In this document: positions 22,555-64,000 of the stretch, piece after piece
Numbering within the stretch: the first letter of the stretch is position 1
How the letters are laid out: each line of letters begins with the position of its first letter
Translations under genes and position numbers: made by a program
Notes under the pieces: model-generated
The model's database searches: none
Seen by the model: the letters and a program-made list of their open reading frames with translations, nothing else
Told to the model about the DNA's origin: nothing
Source: Epithemia pelagica
Lineage: Eukaryota > Protista > Bacillariophyta
NCBI GenBank assembly: GCA_946965045.2
Contig: OX337229.1
Span: 3,906,001 to 3,970,000 of the forward strand
DNA length: 64,000 nt
Reading direction: 5' to 3'

Positions 22555-22674
22555 TATGGAAGAGTTGCTGACATCCAGAGTATTACACCACACCACCCAA
22601 CGAGTGGTCGTTGGGATGGAAAAGGTTTCACAAGTGATCAGGATGTCGGGCTCAAGGCGATCGGTCAAAATAGA

Positions 22675-22746
22675 TTTCCCGAACGGGACTCGAACCCGCA
22701 ACCTACAGATTAGAAGTCTGTCGCGCTACCTTTGCGCCATCGGGAA
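22675..22746 (-). tRNA. trnR-UCU: tRNA-Arg (anticodon UCU), intronless
   Basis: TTCCCGA acceptor stem / TCGGGAA-A; D stem GCGC; anticodon arm ACAGA-CTTCTAA-TCTGT; T arm GCGGG-TTCGAGT-CCCGT. Confidence 0.96.
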
Positions 22747-23062
22747 ACATGGTGGCTGTCCAAACCGAAACGCTACTCCTACGTGTATTTTGCGTATATT
22801 TACTCATTGATAATCACCTCATTACGTTCCGTTGAACGGCTCGAGTTGCGTAAGGTCGTAAGATTACTCGTAGGCTCTAGAGGTACCCTACAGCTCATTA
22901 TGGCTGTTCATTTTGCAATTTTCAACGCACCTTTATGGTGAAATGTGCCCCCAACTCCCCCATCTCGATCTCGCGGAGTAGAACGGGTGGGTGTCCACGC
23001 TCCAGACACAAGTTACGACATGCGATTGGCCGGGACTTCTGCCTTGGAAACTCCAAGTTCCT

Positions 23063-45243: not shown

Positions 45244-45246
45244 GTA

Positions 45247-45965
45247 CTCCCTCCTGCTCGAAATTATTGCAACAAGTTTTTTTAGTCATAGTAGTCGCAC
45301 AAAAAGCTCTCGTAGGCCCTGGTACATTTCTACAGGAGGATGGCCGGCTCATTCGGAGTCGAATTTTAGAGATGAACATTCAACGTGACACGCGCCAAAA
45401 CCTAACTATCCTTTATTGGCTTGACACTTTTTACCGCTTCGATAACAGCAGGTGAAGAACACTTAGGAATCCGACCACGCGCGCGCGCGATGGATGAAAT
45501 TATGGGGGAATTAATTATGTCCCCCGCATGCCATTGCTGTGCGCGCTCTCATTCCCTACTTATGATGGATCGATGAGTACCAAAAATTTGGCGACGTTCG
45601 ACAAAACACCTCTGGCAAGGTGCCATTTAGATGGGGAAGGATAGATTAATGTCCATAGAACCTCCACAGACATTAGCCAGCAACTCTTTGTACTTTACCC
45701 CCTCGCGGGCCTGGCTGTAGGGTGCCATGGCTTGGGTGCACCTGGGGGGCCAGAACCGGTACGCCAAAGTTTGGGTTGCTTTTTTAGCCTCTTTTAGTTC
45801 CATGTAGCTCTCCAGGATTGTGAGATGGAACATATAAATTATACATGGAAATTTGAGTCTAAACATAAGCTATCGATCTATATAATTTTTAGCGCTAAAG
45901 GGCCAGCGCGTGAGAAGTTACGTCATTTTTAGTAACTTGTTGCGATAATTTCGAGCAGGAGGGAG
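45247..45965. mobile_element. Stowaway-like (Tc1/mariner non-autonomous) MITE, 719 bp
   Basis: 32-bp TIRs CTCCCTCCTGCTCGAAATTAT(T/C)GCAACAAGTT with one mismatch; TA dinucleotide on both flanks (45245-46, 45966-67); no coding capacity. Confidence 0.88.
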
Positions 45966-46715
45966 TAGGTATCAAGTTAAACGTACCCACCATTCGTAGT
46001 TTTTACTCCGAACGAGTAGCGATAGTTTGGAATGACTTTCGATGTCGGTGGCACATCCGACATCCAAGACTTGCTGGCTTATTTGGCTTGGCGCGTGCCA
46101 CACCTTGGATCTTTCGGTGCTGGTCGACCAAGGTACACATTTCATCTAGTGTAGACCTTTATTTGTACAAAACGATCCACAGTGCATAAAAGGTCGCGCA
46201 TGCGTGGCTGGCGTTTGAAATGTCCACCCCACCACAGAACTTTTGCCCAATCCACCAAGAGCGCCCACGCCAACAAGCTCAACAAATCCTCTAGTGACAA
46301 CAACGACTAGCAAAGCCAAGAAGAAGGGAGTGCTGTGCTGCGTTTTGCTGTCCTTTCCGCAAAGTTGCAGCATAGGGAGAGGTATTCAGCAAGAACCAAG
46401 CTGCATTTCTTTTTCGCACTAGTGCTTTCGTCTGTCGCTTCCTGGTAAGCTGATCCAGCAGCATTCGAGGTCACCATTGGCCCTGCCACCAAAGACGGCT
46501 TTTCGAAACGACTTGAGTCCAATCTGCAGTTGAATAGAGGCTCAGCAGCCAGGAAAAAGAACATTTTCATCCACCGCATTTGCGAGAAAGACTAAGGATC
46601 TTACAGAGACACTCACGAAGAGGTTCCTCGGTGCATCTTGACACCACTTTCAGCAAATCATAAAATTATCGCGCTCTTGAGTATTGGGTTGAGTGTCATA
46701 TTCTGAACAGTAAGG

Positions 46716-49700
46716 ATGTCTTCGAAATCACGCGGCCTTGGAGGGTTTCGTCAACGTATGAGTGGAAAATCGAAAAAGGATGAAGAAATCGCTCCTGAAA
46801 ATTCACAGAATGGTATGAGAGAGTCCTCCGGTCACGAACGCGAAGGTCGATCCAGGTCTAACACCAGTTCGCGAAGGGCTCACTCGATTTCAACGCCTTC
46901 AAGTCCGAAGGGAGACAAAGCACGACGATCTCATTCCGTGACCAAAGCTGCACAGGTCGAAGAAGACGTTTTTGTTGACAACACACCTGATAGTCCAACG
47001 AGATCGCAATCGCAACAACCACGAGGTCGAGATGGAAGAAATATTATTCAACGACTGCGTGATAGGAGCCGGTCGCGTTCGCGATCTCGTTCAAGATCAA
47101 GAGGAGAGAGTCAGAAAGAAATGTTGGTGGCCGTTACATCCTGCAGAAGTGACGGGTACTACAACCAGAAAGCTCCCGGGTCCACTTCAAAACTACCACG
47201 AAAAGCTCCTGCTAATCTTAAGTTGTTTCATGAACTTGCCGTTGGTGTCAAGGATGCTTATGTTGCGGCGGATTCAACTCCGAAGCAGCCTACCGAGCAG
47301 GAGGAACAAGAGCTTGAAAAGAGCGAGCTTGAGGGACGGAATGTTCTCTGGGAGTTTGTGGGAAATCTAGATTTTGTAAGTACCTTTGTGTTGTTGGGAC
47401 AACGTCCCAAATGGCGCATGTTTTCGCTTATGCTGACCTGTGCATGCTGCTTTTAGCTCCTAGCGCTAGTAGACGAGGTAGCGGTTGATAGCGTCACTCG
47501 TGGAGCCCTCAAAGATGATTCTGCATTCAAAGGGTTACGAGATGTGATCAAAAAGGGTAACAGAGTGCTGGAAGAAATGTTGGTTCGTCGTGAGCGCAAA
47601 TACACTTTATTTTTTCGACTGGTCCACCCAGAGGATAGCCAGCAAATAGAACGCATGAAAACATGGAACCAGAAAGTGGAGAAAGTTGTCGGAGCTGTCA
47701 CCGAAGATCGCGAGGCGATTCTGAACGCTTCCGATTCCGGCAGTGAAGCTTCCTCAGTTGGAAGTGGAGTGAGCGGCCGTGTGGGTGTGTTTAATAGAGG
47801 CCGTCAATTGTTGCCCACAGCCGGTCGAGTACGTGGTCGACGTGCAACTCCTACACCGCGGTTACGCAAGAGGGATACGAGTGAATCTGAAAACACCGCA
47901 GATTCTGCGTCGGATGGGTTCTCAACCGTTACTGCCCCATCGATATCCACCATTGGATCATCATCAACTGTAGAAAATGAAGAGGGGGAGGGAGACATTC
48001 TTCCTAGTGGCCTTCGTAGCGGTGGTAGCGCTGAGCTGGCGACTGCTAAGCCCATTCTTCCGAAGGATGAGCTAGTAGATGTCATTCGAGGCTTGCGAGT
48101 TGAAAAAATGACTAAAGGTGACGCGAAAGCTGACGAAGAGTTAGCCCAACTCAAGCCCAACTGGTTGCCCAAAGCTGATGTGCCACCGTCGGTCCCAAAA
48201 CTTCCCGTGGAATATGTTCATCGCCATCGTTTGATGAAACAGGTTGTGAACTGCCTTCTTGGCGAGGTTGAGAATGCCCCCGATGCAAACTCAGGTTCAA
48301 ATCTTATAACATGCGTTACGTCGCGTCATGGAGACAAAGCCGGGAACGGAAAGTCTACACTTGCTGTAGCAGTAATACAAACTGTTGAAGTACGGGAACG
48401 CTTTGTCGATGGCATCGCCTGGCTGAAATTAGGCCGTGCGGCCCTCAGTGACCGAGATGTTCGTAGACTCTACGAAGAACTTTATCGTCAACTCATTGTG
48501 AAAGAACAGGATATTGATGCATCCGTGAGTGAAGGAGACAAATTGCACTTTAATGATTCGGTCAATTCGCTGAACTCAGATACCAGGGTTGACAGGACGG
48601 TGGAACGGGCGGACAGTGTACGCCGGTTCCAAGGCGGTGATCTGGAAGGTATTAAAGAAGATCTTGGGAGGATGTTGGTTGAAAGGAAGGTATTGATTTG
48701 CCTCGACGACGTTTGGAGAGTTGAGGACGCTAAATGGTTCATCTTCGAGAACAATTTTGCACCGAATTCTAGGGATAGCCCTTACAAAGTGTTAATTACA
48801 ACCCGTGCACCTTCCCTCCTTGGAACAGGAACAGTGCAAGAAGTCTTTGTCCGCATTTTGTCTGAGCATGAAGCTGTCAAGTTGCTTCTTTCAACTTCTG
48901 GGCGCCGACCTTACGGTGGTCGTAGTTCTGCGGTGTTTAATCAATCGAAACTGGTTGTGAAAGGTTGTGGAAACTCGCCTCTCGGAATTTTGCTTGTCGG
49001 CAGTATGCTCCGGAACCACAATCGAAACTGGAATATGAACTCTTCAGTTTGGAACGGTATTTTCAACCAGTGTGGGTTGAATCTTGAAGAAGCAGCCCAG
49101 TTGAGAAGTTTCAAAAACGCGTTGATGAGAATATTGGATGCGAGCTTCTTCACAATTGCCGATCCTTGCTACCGGGTAGCAATGCGAAGGTGTTTTGTCC
49201 TGTATGCCATCGCGTTCAGGTCAAACGACTGGATGTTGTCAGGCAAAGGGATTCCGCAGTCCGTCATCACTCAGTTCTTCAAGACTGTCATTGCAACCGG
49301 CCCTGTTGGTGATCGAGAAATTGACGCCAAACAAATCCTGTTGACTCTAGAGAATCTCAAACTAGTTCAACGGGCAGGACATAGCATCTCACCGCCCGTG
49401 ACTAAAGAGGCTGATAACGATGCCTCCGAATCTTCAAACGGAAACGATGAAGGGGACACATGGGATGACTTTGATGAAATCCCTAGGCGTCCAATTCAGC
49501 AATACTACACAATGCATGATTCCTTGAGGGCTGTCGCAGAAATCATGGCCCAGCGTCAGATGCCCTGTTTCACTCCTTCAGATGATCAGTACAACTATTT
49601 TAAAGAGTGCATTGTGGAGGAGAAGAAACTTGCTTCTAAGAACTCGCAACTATGGACTGCGCCGCTCCGCTTTCTCACTAAGCAAAATCGAAATGAGACT

Positions 49701-51248
49701 CTTACGGATGATCGTGTCCATGAACTTCTCATTGCGGCTTTGGTAGGTGGTGGAGATGGTAAGGCTCTTTCGAAAACTTCTGTAGCGGAGGCAATGAAAG
49801 CAAATCAGGTATCGATGAAGGGAATAGAAGGAGCAGACAAGTTTGAAGAATATACAACTGCTTTCCTTCCCGAACACCTCATGCTTTCGAAAGCATATTC
49901 TAGTGCTGCAGAGCTCCTCGTTGACGACGGTTTTGTGCGTCGAAGGGTATTCGCAATGGGTATCATGGACGCCACTGGTCGGCAAGTGGCTGATATTCTC
50001 GACCTGCGTAGTTTTATGGGCAAGGGAGCTACAGGTGGAGGAAGGGCTGGAACTGGGTCACCGGTTCGCGGTGAACGGAATCTGATGGACGATGCTGATG
50101 ATGTTGGTCGTCACATTGATCCTTCCTTTGATATTGACGCTGCGATATGCGACGCTGCAAGGATTATTATCGATGAGGTGTATAAGGTTACAAATAGCAT
50201 GGGATCATCAGATTCCTTGGGTATGGCGACATGCCTTGCAACGGTCGGGGAGTGTTTGCTTAAATGCAAGCAACCAAGGGATGCTATGTTGCGACTTGAA
50301 GAAGCTGTCAGCATTTACAGAGGTCTCCTTGGGCCGTACCACGTATATGTTGGGCATGCTCTTCATTCTGTCGCAAAAGCTCTTTCAAAACTCGGGGAGA
50401 CTAGGGTTGCTCTTCTTAAGTTCGCGGAAGCCGCCAGGATTTATGAGGCCTGCAATGCAGCTCTTCACTATGATTCTATTGCTAATGCCCATTCTCTGGC
50501 GTCGCTCTTAGTTGATATCGGGGACGTTCGCAAAGCTGAATCCATGTTTGAAGAGGTGATCTTAATGAAACAAGCGGTCTGTGGTGAAAACTCGGTCCAA
50601 GTTGCGAAAACGATCAATAGCTATGCTATCTTACTGGCGAAGCATGGCAGAATGAAAGATGCAATGCGGAACTATGAGCTGGCTCGAACTACGTACAGCA
50701 AGTCTCCGCCTCCGATAATACATGATCCAGAGTTTGATGTTAAGTGCAGGTATGATGTGACCTTGATCACGTTGAACATAGCTTCGGTATATTCGAAACA
50801 AGGGGATCTGAATAAGGCGCTGGAATGTTACACTGAAGGTGTCAGAGGTTTAGAGGAATTTGACGAAGATATGGGGAGGTTAAGAGAGGCTCGTGGAATC
50901 CATGACCAGTCCCACAAGACATCTTCGCACAAGCACCTTATAGCTGCTTTGGGTCGGATCGGATCTCTGCGTTTGAAGCAAGGAGACAACGAAGGTGCTT
51001 TGGAAGCATACATGGCATTGATTACCCAGGTGGATGACGAAAGTCCAATCTCTTCCCATCATGAGAAAGCGAAAGCACACATCAAATGTGCTACGATCTT
51101 GCGACAGAGAACAGGCGCTGAGAATCGCGAGGAATCGATTACTCATCTGAAGGAGGCCCTGCGCATGTACAAGAGCCTTTATGGTGCTGATCACAAGGAT
51201 ACTGTAGCAATTGCGACGACACTTAAACAGTGGCAGTCTGAAAGGTGA
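46716..51248 (+). CDS. STAND NTPase: helical N-terminal domain, NB-ARC, Apaf-1-like helical domain, TPR repeats (intron 47376-47456)
   Basis: Walker A GDKAGNGKSTLA, Walker B LICLDDVW, VLITTR, GxPL-like GNSPLGI, MHD motif, EYTTAFLPEHL, then multiple TPR-like repeats; phase-0 intron. Confidence 0.88.
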
Positions 51249-52690: not shown

Positions 52691-53433
52691 GCGCTTTCAT
52701 GAGAGCCACCCAGCGAAGAGGTACTAACAAATTTTACTTTAAAAAATAAAATACTGGATGAGGTCGATGACGGGAAGTCCTTGGTTGGGCTTTTGGAAGT
52801 CAAAAGACAAGTGAATAGTAGATCCAATCTACTCGTACCTTGGTCTCGGTTGGACTACCTAGGTAGTTACCATCATAGAGTAGTATTCATCTCTGCGCGG
52901 GTAGCAAAGAAGGGAGGCTCATATGCCTTCTTCCAGAATGAGCATATGGATTATGGATTATGGATGCTCAACCTTGTATCCATGGCAATAGTTGGGTTTG
53001 TTGTTTCTCATCCCGGGGATCTTTCCCCTATTGCTCCGAAATTGGTGGGGCGTTGTGCTCGATCGCACCCCATTCTCGCCCAGCCCTTAGCCTTCTTATT
53101 GTTCAAAAGCAGAAGGATAGTGAATATGGATAGGGAATCCTGTTTATCCAATCTGGAATAGATAGGGAAATACTCTGTTAAAATAATAGCATTCTCGCCT
53201 CGCGTGCTCAACGGTCACAACGTATACGCGACACAATTTTGGGGACGTTTACACGATCCCTTAAAGATCCAAACATTCTAGATCTTAACCATAATCTCTT
53301 TTGCCACCTGAGTCCAACTCATCTACTTGGGCCGTAGGAGAGTTTTCACACGCTTCCTCTGCGCTAAAGTGCAGGTCACTCGACAGTCTCGATCAATCGC
53401 CTTCGACCTTCCGAAGTACCCGCAAGCACAACA

Positions 53434-55017
53434 ATGGCACGTCGCACTCGCGGCGAAGAACCACGACGCGGCGTCGGAGCGCCGGAAGACGAAGAAGAAG
53501 CAGTTGCGGGCAATCAAGGAAACCCCAACGAGCAAGAGGAGGAGGAAGAGGAAGACGATTACCTCGAGGCACGTCAAGTGATGAATCAAGACCTTGTCGA
53601 CGCGCTAGGTAGCGCCACACAACGAATCGTGATGGCGATCGACCGCGCAGTCGCAGCCATGGGAGCTCCTGGGGGAGCAGCACCTCCGGGAGGAAATCCG
53701 TTCATTCGCACACCGTTGCAAGCAAGGACGGATCAAACGCTGGACTTCCATCAGAAGGAAGGACGCAAGTACTACGAGAATGCGACTCGATCCCTGTTCT
53801 CCAGTAGCGAAGACAAATTTGACGTCGAGCCGAGCAAGTTCCAGCTGTTCATCACGCTACTGCTAAACCGAGCTAAGGACCTAGGCATGCTCGACTCACC
53901 AACTACGCATGGAAATGCCATGCTACCAAAGGACCCAAGGAATCCCACGGACGATGGAGCCATCAACATTATCAAGGACTATGGAAGAGCTCATCTGGAA
54001 GACATCACCAAGTGGGAGAAGGAGATCCTGAACCAAGAATCCAGGATGAGTCAAAACTCCAAGATCCTCTTTGACCTCCTGATGAACTCCCTGACAGCGA
54101 AGGGAGCACAACGCATCCAAATCTGGCGATCCCAATACACGGTAGATGGGATGGATGCGGGAGCCTGCTTGTTTAAGATTATTGTCCGCGAGAGTTACCT
54201 CGACTCAAACGCGACAGTATCAACAATCAGACTCAATTTGACGAACTTGGACGAGTACATCAGGGAGAACGGAAGCGACCTAGTTGCTTTCAACGCCTAC
54301 GTCCAGAGTCAAGTCGATGGTCTAAAAGCAAGAGGCCATAACACAAGCGATCTAGTAGTCAACCTGTTCAAAGGCTACAGAGCCGTGGAAGATGACAAAT
54401 TCAAGGTCTATCTCCAAGGCATCGAGAACAGCCATGAGGACGGATCAGTCGAGGTTGATGCCCCAACACTCATGTTGCGGGCAGTTAACTTCTACAAGAC
54501 GCGACTAACCAGGAACGAATGGGAACAGCCGACGGAACAACAGAAAGAAGTGTTAGCGCTGCAAACCCAAGTGGAGTCCCTGAAAAAGCAACAGAACCGA
54601 TCCAAGAAGACGACGACCGATGGGAAACGCCAAGGAAATCAAGAAAGCGGATCCTCAAGCAAACCACCCCGTCCGAATTGGCTCCGTAACAATGTCCCAC
54701 CAAAAGAGGGATCCGAACGACGCTTCCGGACTTGGAATAATGCCAAATGGTGGTGGTGTGGTCCGGAAACGGGAGGAAACTGTGGCGGCGGATGGAGGAC
54801 CCATCAACCGTCCGAGTGCCGATCCAAGAAGCGCGAAGCTAGTCCGTCCGCAGGCAAGAAGAAGGAAGATGGAGGCGGACGAAAGAAGTCGTCCAATTTC
54901 TCTGGCAAGAAACGCAAGCAAGATGCCATCAAGCTAGCGGTAGCCAACGAGACCATTATGTCCGATGACGAGGACAAGAACCATTCGGACGCGGAGGACT
55001 CCGAATACAGCACCTGA
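53434..55017 (+). CDS. gag: Gag of host copia element
   Basis: GPxLFK-like GACLFKII, IRLNLTNL, LFKGY, and a CoDi-type knuckle WWWCGPETGGNCGGGWRTHQPSEC; ends in TGA. Confidence 0.88.
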   Translation: MARRTRGEEPRRGVGAPEDEEEAVAGNQGNPNEQEEEEEEDDYLEARQVMNQDLVDALGSATQRIVMAIDRAVAAMGAPGGAAPPGGNPFIRTPLQARTDQTLDFHQKEGRKYYENATRSLFSSSEDKFDVEPSKFQLFITLLLNRAKDLGMLDSPTTHGNAMLPKDPRNPTDDGAINIIKDYGRAHLEDITKWEKEILNQESRMSQNSKILFDLLMNSLTAKGAQRIQIWRSQYTVDGMDAGACLFKIIVRESYLDSNATVSTIRLNLTNLDEYIRENGSDLVAFNAYVQSQVDGLKARGHNTSDLVVNLFKGYRAVEDDKFKVYLQGIENSHEDGSVEVDAPTLMLRAVNFYKTRLTRNEWEQPTEQQKEVLALQTQVESLKKQQNRSKKTTTDGKRQGNQESGSSSKPPRPNWLRNNVPPKEGSERRFRTWNNAKWWWCGPETGGNCGGGWRTHQPSECRSKKREASPSAGKKKEDGGGRKKSSNFSGKKRKQDAIKLAVANETIMSDDEDKNHSDAEDSEYST

Positions 55018-55089
55018 CGAACCTGGAGAAAGTGGAAGATAAACATACTAACCATGATGGTATATATGTTCACCACTTTCTCCCTTAGG
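55015..55089 (+). other. Putative stop-codon readthrough signal: UGA-C, 7-nt spacer, long stem-loop
   Basis: GGAGAAAGTGG (55025-35) pairs perfectly with CCACTTTCTCC (55073-83); inner stems AACATA/TATGTT and ACCA/TGGT; the frame is open after the stop. Confidence 0.72.
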
Positions 55090-55151
55090 CACGCCATAGA
55101 ATGGTTGATTGTTGGGATAGCGCACCAAGTAATCAAGGGAATCCTGATAAT

Positions 55152-55934
55152 TGTTACAATTCTTTCTGAATCGTAGGGACATTGATGCTCGGTAGAGCAG
55201 ACAATCAGGTAGGTCACCAACCGATACAAGCTTCTCAGGGTCAGAGAAGCAAGCAAGTCGAAGTCTATCAGAAGGATAGTCGGGACACAAAAGAGGATGT
55301 GATAAATGGTGATATTGTTAGATTGTGTGTTGATTACTACGATAGGTCTACGTGAAATGTTCGGTCCTGCCAAGGGTCATGTATCATAGGTTCTTGGCGG
55401 CAACAGGTTTGGAATAGTTGGAGTTGATTCATGTGATGTATATGACATGTATATGTGGGCGGATAACATATACAGGGTCAACAGCTCTTGCTTTGGGTTG
55501 GCATAGTTGTTTTCATGGCGCGCAGCTTGTTGACAATTTGGAGATTGTGGGAATGGAAATATGGTCTCGCGTGATCGTGTGTCGTGCTTGGGATACTTAG
55601 ACCGTTGGATCGGATAGATGCCGATAGCGCTCGGATGTCGCTTGGGCGCGCTCGATGATTTCGGGCGCGTACGCTTAGGGCGTTAGTACAGTGTCCGAGC
55701 AACGGCCAAATTTACGTCCGTTGTAATACCGCACGACCCAATTTAGTCTTGAGAGTGAGTTCGTCAATCTATTCTCACTTTTCATGATTTGCGAAGAAAT
55801 ATAGGTCGATATAGCGCGAAGCTAGGAAACATAGCTCGAAGCTAGAGGGCATGATGCGATAGCACGAGGCTATGTGACATGGGGAATCGATGAGATGTAG
55901 AATCTAACCACCATAGACGGTGAGAATTCTAACA
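55152..55934 (-). repeat. 3' LTR of nested element
   Basis: Reads TGTTAG...GTAACA on the minus strand; identical by eye to 62753-63535. Confidence 0.97.
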
Positions 55935-58900
55935 CTCCCCACAACTCGTCGTTTCAGCCTTGTCATCATTGGATTTGTTGAGGTCTTGAACTTCTCCTTT
56001 CCAAAACAACAATGGCTTGAGCATGGGCCAGATAGATACGAAATCCCAATGTTTGCTAAGGATATCGGCGGGGTTGGTCTTTCCATCTTTCCAGTAGAAT
56101 GCAACATACTTTGCTGCGATGGCTTCACGAACTCGGTGGTATGACAGAAGATGGTGTCTCTTGGATAGTATGGAATGAGGAACGGTTGCATTGAGCACAA
56201 CAGATCTGTTATCTCCGTACATGTAACTTCGCTCTCGGATAGGTACTCCAAGGTAGCGGAGAGAATGTCGTAATTCTGTAATCTGATCTATTGCTGTCCT
56301 TGCAGCCACGAACTCGGATCCATAGGTAGCAGTTTCCACTGTGCTCTGTCTCTTGCTGTACCAGTCAATAGGTGTTCCGTTCAACAAATGTAGAACAGCA
56401 GTGACGGATTTACCAGTGACTATGTCATGCATGAGATTGGCATCAACATAATGAGTTGTAGTAACATAGCGGCCAAGAGGTGTTGGGCAGTCTTCAGGAA
56501 TACGTTCACTTGCATTCGAATAGACAGTGCGAGTCCAATCAAATTCTTGGGTAGGAAGACTTGAATAATCAGGCTCTCCAATCCTAAATCTGATTGCGCC
56601 TTCTGGGAGATGTGCAAGGTATCCATAGATACGCTTGGCTCTATCAAGATGTCCTTTCCTCGGAGCAGCACGAAAGCGTGATAGCGTCATTGTAGCGGTG
56701 AAGACGTCGAAACGACCAATAGTGATCACCCATTGAAGTTGTCCAATCAGAGTTTGGAAATGGTTAGTACCTTCTTCATCAAGGAGCTCAGAATCGTCCA
56801 ATTCAGGATGGTCTCCACCAATAAGAGGTGTTTTGGCTTTCTTGGGTTTCTCCTTGAAGATTCGTTCGAAAGTGTCCATCATCTTACCAATGTAGCGTCT
56901 TGGATCTGCTACTAATGTTCCATCAGAATCCTTGGTGTAACAACATCCCAAGTGGAAATCAATAGGTCCATCTCCTTTGAGTTTGAAGTTGTATTTCTCC
57001 TTCAGGATCTTGCAGATATTCCCAGGATCAGTAGAAATAATGGCTAAGTCATCAACGTATACGGCAATGTATTCGTAACAGTCTTCTCCAGGTGCCTTCC
57101 TCATCCAGATATCCGGATCTGCTTTGCTTGGTGAAAATCCCATGTCTGTCAAAACATCGAATAAGACATCATGCCAGCGTGCGCCTGATGACTTCAATCC
57201 ATAAAGTGCCTTGTATATAATCAGGATGTGACCTTCTAATTCCTTGAATTCAGGTCCTGCGACAATGAAAAGTTTCTCCCCTGTCAAGGCTTCCAGATAT
57301 GCGTTTCCAATATCTGCTCCCCATATTTCCAAGTCATTCAAAGTACCCAGGAATAAGGCAATGCGGAGGTTGCGAATGGAAACAACACCTGAATAGATTG
57401 TCTCAACAGGTTCTTTTGTGAGATGTCCATCTGCGACAAGTCTTGCTTTATGTCGTCCATCATGTTTTACGTCAAAGACAAGATGTACACGTATCTTATG
57501 ATATCCTTCAGGTGCATTGGATACTTTCCCTTTAATGAAGATGGCTTTCCCAAAATCCTTGAATGTCTTGTAGGACTGGATCTGTGACAATTCTAATTCT
57601 GTTGCATCTTGCCACTTTGTGTTGCCATGTTGTTTATCAAGAGTGACAGCTTCCTCATAATTGCGTGGTACTTGGAATCCAAACTTATACTTGACGGAAT
57701 GGTGAACTTGTTTAATCCTTGACTGTTTGGCTGCTCGAATGAGACGTTTGCTTGTTTTGACATAACGTTTCAAATGCTTCCATCCAGGTTCGTTGAGTAA
57801 ATCATGTTTCTTTCCATAAATTGCTACAGTGATCGGATCATCATTGGCGATGAGTGATAAAGGTTCATAGGTAGTCTCCCCAGTTTCCCAATCAACAAGC
57901 AAATTATATTTGCTCCCCTTGTAATCTGGATCAGTTGTGTTCAGTGGGCCTTGATGGGCAATGACGTCCCTGAACCTGAAAAGATTATCTCCAGAGGTTT
58001 GAGCTTGGTTATCTCGTTCGATATACTCCATGAGTTGATTATAGGATATCATCTCATCAACATCAGAATTTGTCTTTCGGTAGATATACTTGACACGTTC
58101 TTCCTGTTTCGTTGCTTCTTCATTAAGATCAATGACTCGTTTGATGACACGTGCACGGTGTCGCTCCCCATTTTCTTCTGTGTCGCATAGGAATGTGCGT
58201 CCTATCATGTCGTCAAAATCGATCGTGGGCATTGGTTTGGATGGATCTTCACTATCACTGCGAATGAAGACAGTGTCAGCTTGCTTATCATTGTCATCCT
58301 TGTCAGACGAATCCTCCCCTGAAGGTCGATCCACACGTAGGTTAGGTGTAGTGGATTCAACACGGCGAACGGCAGAACGGTAGATGATCTGGTTATCCTG
58401 GGTGAGAATCTTCCAAGTAAAAGAATCACCAACGTTGTGAGCAAAACCAACCCAGTGGCCAAGTTTCTCATCAGAAGAAGATGGATATGAACCGGAATTG
58501 GGTTCAGCGGGGTCGACACGATAGTAAACCTCATCCCAGAAAGGAAAGAACAAGAGATGAGTAATGTCGGGTGGGCGTCCGGAGAGAGCCTCAAGAGGAG
58601 TGCGACCGGAGTGGGTGGGTGATGACGTATGGTTCAATAAGTCACAGACATACTCAAGGCAAAGAAGCCAGGTGTTGGCAGGGCAACCAGTGGCATTCAT
58701 GAGAGCGTTGGTCATACGTTTAACGGTCTGGTAACGGTTTTCAGCCTTATTCTGGTGTTGATGATAAGGTTCGGATCGATACTCCCCAATAAGCAAAGTG
58801 CGAAGAATGTCTTTAACCTTTTGAGAGATGAGAGATGAACCACCATCACTGATAAGAGTCTCCATGGCACCACGAAACCGGATGTTGTCCTGAAGAGTAT

Positions 58901-61616
58901 TGACAAACTGTTTGGTTGACTTGATCCCATAGATATCAGTAACCAGAGTATCTCGACCAACAAAGATTTGTGCGACTTTACCGCCATGGTCAACAGCAGG
59001 GGTGTCGGAGAAAACCGAGTCAGTAGCAACGGGTTCATGGCGTCGAGGTATATTAAGGACCGGATTGCGAGCCTTGAAATGTTTCTTGAGGGTGTCGTGG
59101 TCAAAAGTAATGCTACCATTACGTGTAGTGTGCTTGAACGTATCGGCAATAACATCTTCAGATTGCCAACCAAAGAATGGACGGAACTTCTTCCAGTCAT
59201 ACGCTTCCTGGTAACGACGGTGGACAGAGGCATGAAGTGTAGGATCATTACCTTCTGCGTCAGCATAGATAGAAAAGAAGGGTGCGTCGTCAGGTCCATG
59301 ATCGTATGGGAGATCCAAAAGGAGATTGAGGTTACAAACAACACGATCAGTGTACTCCCCATAGTTGTCATATGGATGGTTCGACATACTACCATCAGTC
59401 TTGACGTGTTTCCAATCAGGATCATTGTCAGAGGGTGTGGGAGAAAACGAATGGTCCAGAACACCAGGATCCCATGTGTCGGGTGACGTGAAGATGATCT
59501 GAGGTAAGGTATCCATGTCATCGTCGCTGGGGATACCCAAGGAGTGGATGTAGGCTAACCCATCCTTGATGTGAAGGGGTATGGCACGACCATCAAGTGT
59601 AGTGATGCGTTGTTTACCATCAACTTTAACAGATCGTTCATCAACAGCAAGTCCGAAATGCTCGAATTGACCAGGAGCATGGATAGATAAGCCCTTCCCA
59701 TAATAAGCATATTCATTGAAGATGCCGACAATAGGTCCATCATTGGTCTCAAACTTTGCGGCACATGTGACGACAGGAAGTCCAGTAAGTTCATGGTTAT
59801 CAATACCCACAATAGTGATATGGCGGCCAGTCTTAGAAAGGATGCGCATGTCAGAACCAGCAAGTCCTCCATTAGCACCACGGTCAATCAATTGATTCCC
59901 TGGTAAAGTAGATTTCCTGGAAAACAGATAGCGTGGAACATGTCCTGCTTGTTTATGCATGTTGGCTTTGAAAGTAACCTTCTTGCTCGTCTTGGACTTG
60001 GCGTTAGAAAGAACACTAGTCAGGTCAGTTGCCGGGTGATTGATATCAGTCGTCATGGCTTGGTTGATAAATTGTGTAACCGGATCTGAATCATCTGAAT
60101 GCTCAGTGACTACGCCAGGTGAGTCGTCATCAGATACAACTTGGTTGGGATCAGGATCAGGTTCCGGATCAATGTCGAGGGCATGTGTTTGCACTGTCCT
60201 CGGTATTGTTGATGAAGGTGCTTGAATCATCTTGTTATATTCAATGATCAACTTGCGATCTTCTTCAGAAAGTTTGAACCATAGGTCACGCGGTAGACTA
60301 ACCTTGGACGAAGAGGATGGAGATTCAGATGTCGCTTTGGTGTTGTGGACATGATACTCCATATCATCTTGTGAGGTTATGTCAGCATCTGTATCTTGGC
60401 CATATAGTGATTCATGTTGTTTGACATGTCGACGGCGACTATGAACAGATGACTGGGTTGCTTGATCATGGTCATAAGCTGCGTCTAGAAGGAGACGGAA
60501 GTATGATTGATAGCAAAGGGATTTTGCACCGGATTTGGTGTTCACCACATTATCCAAGATCTTGACTCGGCGGAGATCAGGTACCTTTTCTACAGCTTGC
60601 ATGAGGAAGGTCATCCTGGTATGATCAGGGATGCGATCAGACAATGTCACTAAATTGTCTAGCAAACGTAGCTGCTCTTGAAAGTGTAGAAGAAATTGAC
60701 GTGTTGTTCCGCGCCATGTGTCGTCAAGACGTAGATTGGAAATGTAGTTGGTTAAGCGGAGGACTTCTCGCTTTGCTAGGTCGGATTCGGTATGCAAAGA
60801 GTGTAACTTCTGCAATACGGCACGCGCATCTTCATCATGTTCATGTTCACGTACATAGGCTCGACCTTGGTCAGTCTGAATGATACGGACAAGAACGGAG
60901 TAAAGAAATACTTGTTGCTCTTGAAAAAGTTCTTCGGCATACTCATCATCATGGGGTGGTGTGTATTTGAAATTCAGAACGTTGGATAGGCCTTGAGCCT
61001 TAGCTGTAGTCTTGAATACACGCCAGAATGAATCGTAGTATCGTTCATCCTTGAATACCTCATATGCAGTTGCGTCGCGCTTAGTTCCCTTTCTGAATGC
61101 TGTAAGGTCTTGTTGAGATTGGGATGCGGCAGTAACTGTGCTGACAGATTTCACAGATGACGGTGACTTCATTGGCGAGACTGGGACTTGGCTAGGTGGT
61201 CCCTTAGAGAAATCTGTGTTGATCCTCCAAGTGTTGAACTCTTTCCTCGTTAGGTTCATCCAGTCGCTATTGGATAGCTCGTCTTGAATTTCATTGGTCT
61301 TGTATGTGGCCCAATAAGCCAAGAGCTTGATCTGCTGTCTTGTGGGGCCTTGTAGATCATGTGTCTGTTTGTTGACCTTGTATTGTGTCAGTTCCTTCAT
61401 GGATTCCTCGGTATTAGTTTGCATATACGAGATAACATGGGTAATGTTCTCAAAACCATGGTATTTCATCCACTTCATTAAGTAGTCAGCCCTTTCTTTG
61501 GTAAAAAATTGGCAGACAGTAAATATGATGTGGTCGAATAGGTCTGTGTCCGAGACATTGTCTTGGTTATCTTCTCCCTTAGGAGTCGTAGGTGTCTTGG
61601 GTGATTGAGGATCCAT
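55929..61616 (-). CDS. pol: Gag-Pol polyprotein (Gag, protease, integrase, chromo-like segment, RT, RNase H) in copia order
   Basis: Protease LIDRGANGG; integrase VATDSVFSD / LISDGG / SEPYHQHQNKAE; RT ADIGNAYL, YKALYGLKSSG, YVDD; RNase H YVDANL, TYGSEF, GDN, NPADILSK. Confidence 0.97.
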   Translation of the reverse strand: MDPQSPKTPTTPKGEDNQDNVSDTDLFDHIIFTVCQFFTKERADYLMKWMKYHGFENITHVISYMQTNTEESMKELTQYKVNKQTHDLQGPTRQQIKLLAYWATYKTNEIQDELSNSDWMNLTRKEFNTWRINTDFSKGPPSQVPVSPMKSPSSVKSVSTVTAASQSQQDLTAFRKGTKRDATAYEVFKDERYYDSFWRVFKTTAKAQGLSNVLNFKYTPPHDDEYAEELFQEQQVFLYSVLVRIIQTDQGRAYVREHEHDEDARAVLQKLHSLHTESDLAKREVLRLTNYISNLRLDDTWRGTTRQFLLHFQEQLRLLDNLVTLSDRIPDHTRMTFLMQAVEKVPDLRRVKILDNVVNTKSGAKSLCYQSYFRLLLDAAYDHDQATQSSVHSRRRHVKQHESLYGQDTDADITSQDDMEYHVHNTKATSESPSSSSKVSLPRDLWFKLSEEDRKLIIEYNKMIQAPSSTIPRTVQTHALDIDPEPDPDPNQVVSDDDSPGVVTEHSDDSDPVTQFINQAMTTDINHPATDLTSVLSNAKSKTSKKVTFKANMHKQAGHVPRYLFSRKSTLPGNQLIDRGANGGLAGSDMRILSKTGRHITIVGIDNHELTGLPVVTCAAKFETNDGPIVGIFNEYAYYGKGLSIHAPGQFEHFGLAVDERSVKVDGKQRITTLDGRAIPLHIKDGLAYIHSLGIPSDDDMDTLPQIIFTSPDTWDPGVLDHSFSPTPSDNDPDWKHVKTDGSMSNHPYDNYGEYTDRVVCNLNLLLDLPYDHGPDDAPFFSIYADAEGNDPTLHASVHRRYQEAYDWKKFRPFFGWQSEDVIADTFKHTTRNGSITFDHDTLKKHFKARNPVLNIPRRHEPVATDSVFSDTPAVDHGGKVAQIFVGRDTLVTDIYGIKSTKQFVNTLQDNIRFRGAMETLISDGGSSLISQKVKDILRTLLIGEYRSEPYHQHQNKAENRYQTVKRMTNALMNATGCPANTWLLCLEYVCDLLNHTSSPTHSGRTPLEALSGRPPDITHLLFFPFWDEVYYRVDPAEPNSGSYPSSSDEKLGHWVGFAHNVGDSFTWKILTQDNQIIYRSAVRRVESTTPNLRVDRPSGEDSSDKDDNDKQADTVFIRSDSEDPSKPMPTIDFDDMIGRTFLCDTEENGERHRARVIKRVIDLNEEATKQEERVKYIYRKTNSDVDEMISYNQLMEYIERDNQAQTSGDNLFRFRDVIAHQGPLNTTDPDYKGSKYNLLVDWETGETTYEPLSLIANDDPITVAIYGKKHDLLNEPGWKHLKRYVKTSKRLIRAAKQSRIKQVHHSVKYKFGFQVPRNYEEAVTLDKQHGNTKWQDATELELSQIQSYKTFKDFGKAIFIKGKVSNAPEGYHKIRVHLVFDVKHDGRHKARLVADGHLTKEPVETIYSGVVSIRNLRIALFLGTLNDLEIWGADIGNAYLEALTGEKLFIVAGPEFKELEGHILIIYKALYGLKSSGARWHDVLFDVLTDMGFSPSKADPDIWMRKAPGEDCYEYIAVYVDDLAIISTDPGNICKILKEKYNFKLKGDGPIDFHLGCCYTKDSDGTLVADPRRYIGKMMDTFERIFKEKPKKAKTPLIGGDHPELDDSELLDEEGTNHFQTLIGQLQWVITIGRFDVFTATMTLSRFRAAPRKGHLDRAKRIYGYLAHLPEGAIRFRIGEPDYSSLPTQEFDWTRTVYSNASERIPEDCPTPLGRYVTTTHYVDANLMHDIVTGKSVTAVLHLLNGTPIDWYSKRQSTVETATYGSEFVAARTAIDQITELRHSLRYLGVPIRERSYMYGDNRSVVLNATVPHSILSKRHHLLSYHRVREAIAAKYVAFYWKDGKTNPADILSKHWDFVSIWPMLKPLLFWKGEVQDLNKSNDDKAETTSCGEC
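55935..55942 (-). other. Polypurine tract of nested element
   Basis: GTGGGGAG immediately 5' of the 3' LTR on the minus strand. Confidence 0.75.
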
Positions 61617-61900
61617 GGTGTTATTTGGTTGGTTCGATGTTTATTTAATGTGCGGTGTGATGTGGTTTATTTAATGTGTGATGTGATGTGAACCCGGATG
61701 TACCACGTGTGCCACGTATGTACCACGTATGTAATACCCGGATGTGTGTTGTGATGTGCGACTCCTGGAAATTTCCGTTGATTTCGACAAATTTTCGCCG
61801 AGTTTCAACAAATTTTCGCCGAATTTTCGCGATTTGACGGGAATGTGTGGCGTGTTGTGCGACCAAGGGTACCCGGATGTGCGTTGAGTTTAAGTCTTGG
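61617..61900 (-). promoter_or_regulatory. Repeat-rich spacer between extra ORF and gag-pol, putative internal promoter
   Basis: Minus strand: CATCCGGGT x3, CGGCGAAAATTTGT x2, ACGTGG x3, CACATTAAATAAAC x2 just upstream of the gag ATG. Confidence 0.45.
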
Positions 61901-61936
61901 AAAGGTTTTGAGAGGACGGGAGTTAACTATGAGTAA

Positions 61937-62716
61937 TTAAGCTTCGGTCTCTGAATCCTCACCCTCTTCCGAATGATCAGAGTCGCTTCCAGGCTCAGAT
62001 GGGGCAGCACAAGCAACAGAAGAAGGGGTATCACCTTCAGCCAGGTGGTTCTCGACCTCGGTACGCAAAGGGTAGATAGTTGCACGATGGTCCTCGATGG
62101 TATGGACCTCGTGGATGTAGGCAACGTAGTTATCTAGGCGTACAACGTTAGGAGGCAGAGGGCAAGTCGTCGCGTTCACGACGTAGATGGTATTGTAGTA
62201 TCCAGTTGGGCGCTCGAAGGTTAGGAAGCGGAGGTGGACAGTACGGATGGGGTTGCCCGAGAGGGCGGCAAAGATGAGGCGACGCCTCGGAGAGCGGTGA
62301 AGTTGGTCGTTCAGACGGTCAATGTCTTCTTGGTCGACGATGTGGGTCACCGATTGGAACTGGCGTTCGATCTGGGTCTCCCCACGGATGATCTCGGGAT
62401 CGAAGGTCGAACAAGTTGGTTGGCGGAAGTACTTGATATGATCAGCAATCAACCGGGTGGTACGACGGGATCGAGAAGGGACGAGCCGACGAGGCGGACT
62501 CGGGGGCCGAAGCAACGGCGCAGGGATCGGAGCGTGAGGCTGGGTTGGAGTCTCGAATGGGTTGCTGTTGGAACTGTCGACGGAGATGTTGACCGATGTG
62601 TTGGCTGCCTTCGGCGTCGGCACCAGTTCCTGCTGCACCAGGGTATCGGGCTGCCCGGGATGCAGGTTGGCTCGATAGATCTGTCGTACAGGAGTGATAA
62701 TCTCGTTAGTATCCAT
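61937..62716 (-). CDS. Extra upstream ORF (259 aa) of unknown function inside the nested element
   Basis: ATG 36 nt after the 5' LTR; stop-free 780 bp, same strand as gag-pol; Pro-rich N-terminus, ordered core, acidic tail. Confidence 0.72.
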   Translation of the reverse strand: MDTNEIITPVRQIYRANLHPGQPDTLVQQELVPTPKAANTSVNISVDSSNSNPFETPTQPHAPIPAPLLRPPSPPRRLVPSRSRRTTRLIADHIKYFRQPTCSTFDPEIIRGETQIERQFQSVTHIVDQEDIDRLNDQLHRSPRRRLIFAALSGNPIRTVHLRFLTFERPTGYYNTIYVVNATTCPLPPNVVRLDNYVAYIHEVHTIEDHRATIYPLRTEVENHLAEGDTPSSVACAAPSEPGSDSDHSEEGEDSETEA

Positions 62717-62738
62717 GAAACCACAAGGAAATAAGCTT

Positions 62739-62752
62739 TGAGACTGTTAATC
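62739..62752 (-). other. Primer-binding site complementary to a tRNA-Asn(GUU) anticodon arm
   Basis: Abuts the 5' LTR. Minus strand GATTAACAGTCTCA; its complement TGAGA-CTGTTAA-TC is an anticodon stem plus a CU-GUU-AA loop plus 2 stem nt. Confidence 0.6.
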
Positions 62753-63535
62753 TGTTACAATTCTTTCTGAATCGTAGGGACATTGATGCTCGGTAGAGCA
62801 GACAATCAGGTAGGTCACCAACCGATACAAGCTTCTCAGGGTCAGAGAAGCAAGCAAGTCGAAGTCTATCAGAAGGATAGTCGGGACACAAAAGAGGATG
62901 TGATAAATGGTGATATTGTTAGATTGTGTGTTGATTACTACGATAGGTCTACGTGAAATGTTCGGTCCTGCCAAGGGTCATGTATCATAGGTTCTTGGCG
63001 GCAACAGGTTTGGAATAGTTGGAGTTGATTCATGTGATGTATATGACATGTATATGTGGGCGGATAACATATACAGGGTCAACAGCTCTTGCTTTGGGTT
63101 GGCATAGTTGTTTTCATGGCGCGCAGCTTGTTGACAATTTGGAGATTGTGGGAATGGAAATATGGTCTCGCGTGATCGTGTGTCGTGCTTGGGATACTTA
63201 GACCGTTGGATCGGATAGATGCCGATAGCGCTCGGATGTCGCTTGGGCGCGCTCGATGATTTCGGGCGCGTACGCTTAGGGCGTTAGTACAGTGTCCGAG
63301 CAACGGCCAAATTTACGTCCGTTGTAATACCGCACGACCCAATTTAGTCTTGAGAGTGAGTTCGTCAATCTATTCTCACTTTTCATGATTTGCGAAGAAA
63401 TATAGGTCGATATAGCGCGAAGCTAGGAAACATAGCTCGAAGCTAGAGGGCATGATGCGATAGCACGAGGCTATGTGACATGGGGAATCGATGAGATGTA
63501 GAATCTAACCACCATAGACGGTGAGAATTCTAACA
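62753..63535 (-). repeat. 5' LTR of nested element
   Basis: 783 bp, identical by eye to 55152-55934. Confidence 0.97.
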
Positions 63536-63540
63536 ATAAT

Positions 63541-64000
63541 GACGGAACTTGTCACATTCATAGTGGACGACGATCCCGAGGAGGAACAGGACCCGAAAGA
63601 TTGGTTGTCACGTGCACTCCACGTCACCAACAAAGGAATAGAACAAATAGCAGGCAGATTACACGCCCGAATCAAATCAAATCGGAGTGGCAGAACGCAC
63701 AGAATCCAACACCATTTCAACACAAGACGAAGATACAGGGTGAGCTTCAGAATCATGGCAGCCGTCATCGCCATGTCAGCAGGAATGTCCAATGGAGCAC
63801 AACAAGTTGGAACCTTCGATACTGACTCACGGCTGGTCGGGATCGATAATCGATGCTCGGGATGCATCAGCCACAAACGATCCGATTTCCCGGGTGAATT
63901 GTTGGAATGTAAGAGAGCCATCAAGGGATTTGGAGGCTCAAGGACGTATAACGTATGGCAAGGAACCTTGCAGTGGGACTGGGATGACGACCAAGGAGTC
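63541..64000 (+). CDS. pol: N-terminal Pol (protease region) of host element, separated from gag by the insertion; partial
   Basis: Open frame to the window end: ...TFDTDSRLVGIDNRCSGCISHKRSDFPGELLECKRAIKGFGG...WDWDDDQG, a CoDi-type protease motif. Confidence 0.85.

Follow-up and report, generated by a model that had tools for sequence, protein, structure and literature searches.

Comparative evidence for probable programmed UGA readthrough at the gag-pol junction of a Ty1/copia clade in diatoms

A clade of diatom Ty1/copia retrotransposons probably makes its Gag-Pol fusion by programmed readthrough of a UGA codon by a near-cognate tRNA, a reading to which we assign a probability of about 0.8 on comparative sequence evidence. 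The stop codon, the frame that follows it, coding constraint right after the stop, and the position of a downstream stem, with covariation in one subfamily, are conserved among divergent elements. The proposal that Gag-Pol arises in this way came from a single copy in a 64,000-nucleotide stretch of Epithemia pelagica DNA (the window), and these four lines of comparison support it. The features of that copy are as follows.

53176 to 53350, + strand: 5′ LTR of the outer element, with putative limits; it starts with TGT and ends with ACA right before the primer-site motif
53351 to 53364, + strand: likely primer-binding site, a 14-nt motif right after the final ACA of the LTR, complementary to a tRNA D-arm
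53434 to 55017, + strand: gag, 527 aa with an acidic tail, from the ATG at 53434 to the TGA at 55015 to 55017
55015 to 55018, + strand: in-frame TGA followed by C, the likely readthrough codon
55018 to 55024, + strand: 7-nt spacer, after which predicted long-range pairing rises at nt 8
55018 to 55151, + strand: start of the pol frame, a basic and then a hydrophobic stretch
55025 to 55083, + strand: predicted stem-loop with an 11-bp basal stem (arms 55025 to 55035 and 55073 to 55083) and two inner stems
55046 to 55088, + strand: 3′ splice-site look-alike (branch-point-like heptamer, pyrimidine tract, TAG), a sequence pattern that is probably incidental
55152 to 63535, - strand: nested single-ORF copia element, younger than the outer one; its two 783-bp LTRs are identical and its ORF encodes 1903 aa (RVT_2, E 1e-24)
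63541 to 64000, + strand: continuation of pol with a protease-like motif (63815 to 63859), in frame after the empty-site join

The outer element and its empty site

The 5′ LTR of the outer element lies inside the window and its 3′ LTR beyond it; single-copy contigs from public runs stop at 53176. A Pfam search with Gag gave no match, Foldseek alone found no structural match, and matches in the ESM Atlas were all below 0.9, so that zf-CCHC and Retrotrans_gag serve as leads only. The label of gag nevertheless holds, because the top structural matches of the Gag model (pLDDT 81) are the copia and Ty1 capsids: the Drosophila copia capsid aligned over 182 residues (Z 10.8, rmsd 6.3) and the Ty1 Gag CA-CTD over 87 (Z 10.4, rmsd 2.5). 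The first ORF of the outer element is thus predicted to have a retroelement capsid fold, as in Ty1/copia. A single-sequence model of the C-terminal domain of Gag was too poor for use (pLDDT 44.5), and the viral contigs searched held no relative of Gag.

The first 153 residues of Pol had no Pfam match, and we label 63815 to 63859 as a putative protease from its motif and its position. By eye, the start of the window's pol is close to the N terminus of P0184, a 1425-aa Pol with RVT_2 and GAG-pre-integrase domains, whose integrase-like match (538 to 650) precedes the RT match (947 to 1415), the RVT_2-type order. Relatives of Pol, P0184 included, carry PF13976 and PF07727; the window ends within the protease region. 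The Pol relatives with a named source belong to Fragilaria, Chaetoceros and Cylindrotheca, and one Gag cluster to Conticribra; the matches listed include no named CoDi sequence.

The pol frame is interrupted by the nested element, which is flanked by a 5-bp target duplication (55147 to 55151 and 63536 to 63540) and whose RT/RNaseH is only 25% identical to the Pol of the outer family. The original prediction held that removal of the nested element and one copy of the duplication would restore a single open frame. Leaving out 55152 to 63540 indeed reproduced a frame without stops from 55018 to the end of the window, and the corresponding empty-site joint, 55146 to 63536, was present in contigs of all four runs (at most three samples, from two studies).

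Several observations on the nested element and the rest of the window stand on their own. The nested element has a second ORF of 269 codons at 61937 to 62746 without a Pfam match, and in runs X1 to X3 its contig depth greatly exceeds those of the outer element and of the flank. A contig in runs X2 and X3 joins 54705 to the start of its LTR (short side 27 bases), which may represent a second insertion of the nested element into another copy of the outer element. Elsewhere, the window carries a MITE-like pair of 34-nt inverted repeats at 45245 to 45967 (655 nt apart, 97% complementary), a tRNA-Arg(TCT) gene at 22673 to 22747 on the - strand, and a 1263-codon ORF at 47457 to 51248 on the + strand, with a P-loop-like motif and a repeat-like C terminus that by eye is NB-ARC/TPR-like.

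The primer-site motif is shared by 47 of the 53 loci with enough upstream DNA, and in 46 of them it directly follows ACA. An exact match of 17 nt was located within a tRNA-Met(CAT) gene (L083) and within a tRNA-Pro gene (L082), in the D-arm and not at the tRNA 3′ end. This complementarity suggests that a short 5′ tRNA fragment may act as the primer; our literature search found no description of such D-arm priming for diatoms.

Conservation of the stop codon and of the frame that follows it

A single TGA in the context TGA-C, as originally described, separates gag from pol at 55015 to 55018. Relatives were collected by using a Gag alignment, which gave 135 confirmed metagenome loci, of which the best 80, with 29 to 46% Gag identity, were used; sister copies of the outer element were represented by public-run contigs and protein clusters. 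All 66 full-length gags, i.e., those with an unbroken Gag C-terminal half among the best 80 of 135 loci plus the window, end in TGA, as do all 46 clusters at 70% identity, whose median pairwise Gag identity is 42%. By comparison, the pol frames of 13 of these elements end in TAA (6), TAG (5) or TGA (2) (gag versus pol, Fisher p 3e-10). Among the 15 loci outside the full-length set, nine have TGA at the homologous place and one GGA; of the other five, three stop short of it and two could not be read.

TGA is therefore found at 75 of 76 readable junctions, and at 9 of 10 among decayed copies. The window copy is interrupted by another element, as might be expected if its TGA were a nonsense mutation in one dead copy, but the family-wide conservation rules this out, leaving it next to no probability. 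The only sense codon at this place, the GGA, belongs to a decayed copy with several other stops (L063). Sister copies in the window's organism agree: their upstream pieces differ at up to 16 of 120 bases, and the only variable sites listed between 55000 and 55100, with variants near contig ends left off the list, are 55011, 55020 and 55043, none of which falls in the TGA or in the basal arms of the stem. A host-wide reassignment of UGA was also considered and rejected, as TGA is absent from the interior of pol ORFs of 1292 to 1463 codons and serves as the stop of 2 of 13. Another contig from the same organism shares only 54991 to 55026, across the TGA, with different DNA on both sides; it probably belongs to another family in which the stop has the same context.

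The surroundings of the stop are biased and less strictly kept. The following base is C in 29 of the 46 clusters, T in 10, A in 5 and G in 2, for a background of 20% C, and the preceding codon is GAA in 24. The following codon varies, with CGG in four clusters, CTA in one, and CGA in the window. Conservation of TGA-C in relatives was thus borne out for the stop codon itself, whereas C at +4 is a majority feature only.

Could UGA be read as selenocysteine, directed by a SECIS element or by the adjacent stem? Diatoms possess the Sec machinery, and UGA is the sole stop used in the 46 clusters. Stems adjoining Sec UGA codons are mentioned in the available text of PMC3159437. Against this explanation, 12 near-complete loci of the 80 gave no Rfam match at the gathering threshold, and no SECIS-like pattern was found in the 3′ DNA of 13 elements (3 to 718 nt each), a search in which diatom SECIS forms may be missed. 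The codon moreover follows a low-confidence acidic tail (pLDDT below 50, residues 517 to 527) and does not lie in a catalytic site, and the biases toward C at +4 and GAA before the stop fit leakiness. We consider selenocysteine very unlikely.

The sequence after the TGA behaves as coding sequence in the frame of gag. In 37 of 38 clusters this frame includes the protease region, and the way to it is free of stops in 35, although the spacers between TGA and protease come in 31 different lengths, from 52 to 188 codons. In the first 30 codons after the TGA of 44 elements, we counted no stop in frame, compared with 156 in the +1 and 53 in the +2 frame. Similarly, the first 60 codons encode a segment whose peak hydropathy over 19 residues reaches at least 1.6 in 32 of 44 elements, as opposed to 6 and 3 in the other frames; the window's own element is borderline, at 1.63. 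A YxPKxxR motif, written with many synonymous codons, is present in 20 of 41 elements and missing from that of the window. By inspection of loci L001 to L078, the first 60 to 100 codons after the TGA typically encode a basic-aromatic start, often with Trp at codon 5, then a hydrophobic helix and YxPK(S/A/R)(K/Q)R before the protease. Locus L022 (1480 to 1700) presents a linker of 62 codons to the protease motif without a hydrophobic helix, together with an open pol frame of 1292 codons and a stem.

These features bear on two ways of making Pol without decoding the stop. First, Pol might be made on its own, either from an RNA started at an internal promoter or by ribosomes that reinitiate at the first AUG past the stop, for which the original prediction had pointed to the ATG at 55054. 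In 24 of 43 elements such an ATG is no more than 21 codons away from the stop, and Tca2 has a promoter at its junction, according to the available text of PMC2194720. However, the position of the first in-frame ATG is not conserved, ranging from codon 3 to codon 133, which speaks against 55054 as a pol start. In frame 0, moreover, an ATG precedes any stop in 43 of 46 elements, versus 8 and 16 in the other frames, and the conserved YxPKxxR motif precedes the first ATG in 7 of the 20 elements that have it. As a separate start would in addition leave the TGA of all 46 clusters unexplained, we regard it as most unlikely.

Second, an intron containing the stop might be spliced out to join gag to pol, with the stem masking the 3′ splice site. 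The window does carry the look-alike at 55046 to 55088, Drosophila copia uses splicing (PMC2194720, available text), and fused Gag-Pol proteins without the stop region exist. Nonetheless, a pyrimidine tract followed by YAG was found in only 3 of 46 elements, with no common donor position, and the 615 nt upstream in the window contain no in-frame donor with a good consensus; nor does an intron need stop-free, in-frame sequence from the first codon past the TGA. The fused proteins come from one cluster (P0082 to P0096), in which 8 of 15 members are fused and lack the acidic tail, the stop and part of the linker, as well as about 28 Gag residues, while two members end as ordinary Gag. At the protein level, the P0082 junction, compared with P0090 and P0093, does not fit GT-AG ends, and we thus take it to be a probable deletion. 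When longer proteins were sought, by a search that is weak on absence, this single fused cluster was returned, and 119 of the top 120 Pol relatives are without a Gag motif. Splicing is accordingly most improbable in our view. Neither an internal start nor an intron would predict coding constraint together with strict use of TGA.

A predicted stem-loop beginning eight nucleotides after the stop

A perfect 11-bp stem starting after a 7-nt spacer and enclosing two further stems had been described for the window, and folding recovered it, with the inner stems at 55042 to 55047/55065 to 55070 and 55051 to 55054/55058 to 55061. The folding z-scores at the stop were about -4.5 to -5.3 (-4.57, -5.25 and -4.46 in three folding windows), with none of 200 shuffles as good; a wider segment of 141 nt gave -2.93 (2 of 200 shuffles).

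Across the family, the signal is positional. Mean predicted pairing with partners at least 25 nt downstream doubles in 43 elements between nt 7 (0.21) and nt 8 (0.43) and remains near 0.5 up to nt 17, compared with 0.14 to 0.25 in 208 control windows. When the duplex at the stop was ranked among each element's own control anchors, it fell in the top 5% in 14 of 42 elements (p 8e-9), in the top 10% in 21 and in the top quarter in 26, the other 16 having no stem above the top quarter of controls. The arm of an element pairs best with its own partner in 7 of 44 cases (1 to 4 at control offsets); in the window, as in L001 and L003, the two loci nearest to it, a purine-rich arm that begins at nt 8 has a matching pyrimidine arm. 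The stem is kept in position and not in sequence. Plain folding of 90 nt gave a weak signal for the family as a whole (mean z -1.23 at the stop versus -1.13 at offset -180), and the presence of the stem is weakly clustered on a quick Gag tree, with 10 changes against 13 after shuffling (19 to 30 of 500 as low).

Compensatory changes were found in one subfamily of 10 sequences, picked by eye from the 66 and trimmed around the predicted arm. There, RNAalifold returned a 7-bp helix with two-sided changes at four pairs; over eight pairs, 90% of cells can pair, relative to 28 to 54% in slid controls, and none of 500 shuffles reached the covariation score, statistics that are inflated because the sequences are related and hand-selected. 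In a third subfamily, of 8 sequences, the basal helix is retained over 9 bp with one-sided changes only, and in a second one (7 sequences) the 3′ arms were not aligned by MAFFT. A covariance model built from the 10-sequence subfamily retrieved, among 21 sources, only close kin and not the stem of the window. The anticipated covariation of the stem is therefore seen in one hand-picked subfamily and its position is conserved, but 16 of 42 elements have no clear stem.

A stem close to the stop is also what A-to-I editing might exploit, by changing UGA to UGG in a fraction of the transcripts. The 11-bp basal stem does not include the UGA, and UAG, which is likewise one edit away from UGG, is never seen; editing is extremely unlikely.

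Programmed readthrough and its relation to known systems

We infer the readthrough event, its rate, the inserted residue and the role of the stem from the comparison of elements. In the programmed readthrough that we favor, most ribosomes would stop at the UGA and release Gag, while a minority would insert an amino acid there, probably by means of a near-cognate tRNA, and continue through the hydrophobic linker into protease, integrase and RT. The low frequency of readthrough would set the excess of Gag that the particle needs, and the readthrough is likely aided by the C at +4 and by the predicted stem starting 8 nt downstream. The codons after the stop would serve twice, as a stimulatory RNA stem and as code for a conserved transmembrane-like helix with YxPKxxR behind it, so that the rare fusion might tether particle assembly or protease activation to a membrane. 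Readthrough would then act as a switch between soluble Gag and membrane-anchored Gag-Pol, in a clade that would also start reverse transcription on a short 5′ fragment of a tRNA, with its end in the D-arm; this joint reading is tentative, and we hold it to be rather unlikely as a whole.

If programmed readthrough is correct, it would extend clade-wide in Ty1/copia, where the precedent, Tca2, is of unresolved mechanism in the available text on it. The natural variants, of which there are dozens, some with the stem and some without it, would allow the rules of UGA leakiness to be tested in stramenopiles, and diatom engineering would gain a ready-made element for ratio control. In practice, a gene caller reports such an element as two genes, Gag and a Pol with an arbitrary ATG as its start, and an active element can thus be mistaken for a broken one.

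For diatoms, Maumus et al. 2009 reported elements whose gag and pol are separated by a single stop or frameshift, or by none (PMC2806351); for these CoDi Ty1/copia elements, the available text gives no stop identity, context, structure or mechanism. The available texts of PMC2774666, PMC3587641, PMC8613185, PMC5445492 and PMC3601003 hold nothing on a gag-TGA-pol junction. In line with the original prediction, which knew of no description in diatoms, our literature search found no report of readthrough in diatom retrotransposons or of programmed readthrough in diatoms.

The layout itself is already known from Tca2, Tj1, MuLV and alphaviruses. Tca2 (pCal) of Candida albicans, cited as the precedent, is like the diatom clade an LTR retrotransposon with an in-frame gag-UGA-pol junction, and it has an 8-nt spacer and a predicted 3′ structure (PMC2194720). 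Counting against readthrough, the Tca2 junction failed to direct readthrough in a Saccharomyces cerevisiae reporter and a promoter was found there, in the available account (PMC2194720). The two also differ in form: Tca2 has a purine-rich spacer and a pseudoknot as described, and the diatom clade a 7-nt spacer, a simple long-loop stem that covaries in one subfamily, and a hydrophobic linker. In MuLV, readthrough of the stop between gag and pol sets the Gag:Gag-Pol ratio, with a structure about 8 nt past the stop (PMC3159437, PMC2194720, available text); there, the signal is UAG-G with a compact pseudoknot. Fission-yeast Ty3/gypsy elements (Tj1, Tcry1 and Tosmo1-3) have an in-frame TGA between gag and pol in the context GAA-TGA-CT, and the stop of Tj1 is reported to be essential for transposition (PMC10085805). 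They share GAA before and C after the TGA with the diatom clade, but belong to the gypsy superfamily and keep a strict 8-nt context, with no 3′ stem described in the available text (PMC10085805).

The closest match in form is the type II signal of alphaviruses and furoviruses, which as described combines UGA-C, a spacer of 7 to 12 nt and a stem of 10 to 12 bp with distant arms (PMC3159437). The window has the UGA-C, the spacer and the long-loop stem in common with it, and compensatory changes are a further likeness. A single in-frame UGA is present and, in the window and part of the clade, so is a stem with a spacer of 7 to 12 nt; the strict CGG or CUA context is absent from the window (UGA-CGA), whose signal would otherwise act in the type II manner. 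Type II viruses keep UGA-CGG or UGA-CUA in the available description, whereas in the diatom clade the next codon is variable and the base at +4 is not C in 17 of 46 clusters. Type II signals are viral, while the diatom signal belongs to a retrotransposon in a stramenopile host, in at least 46 divergent elements.
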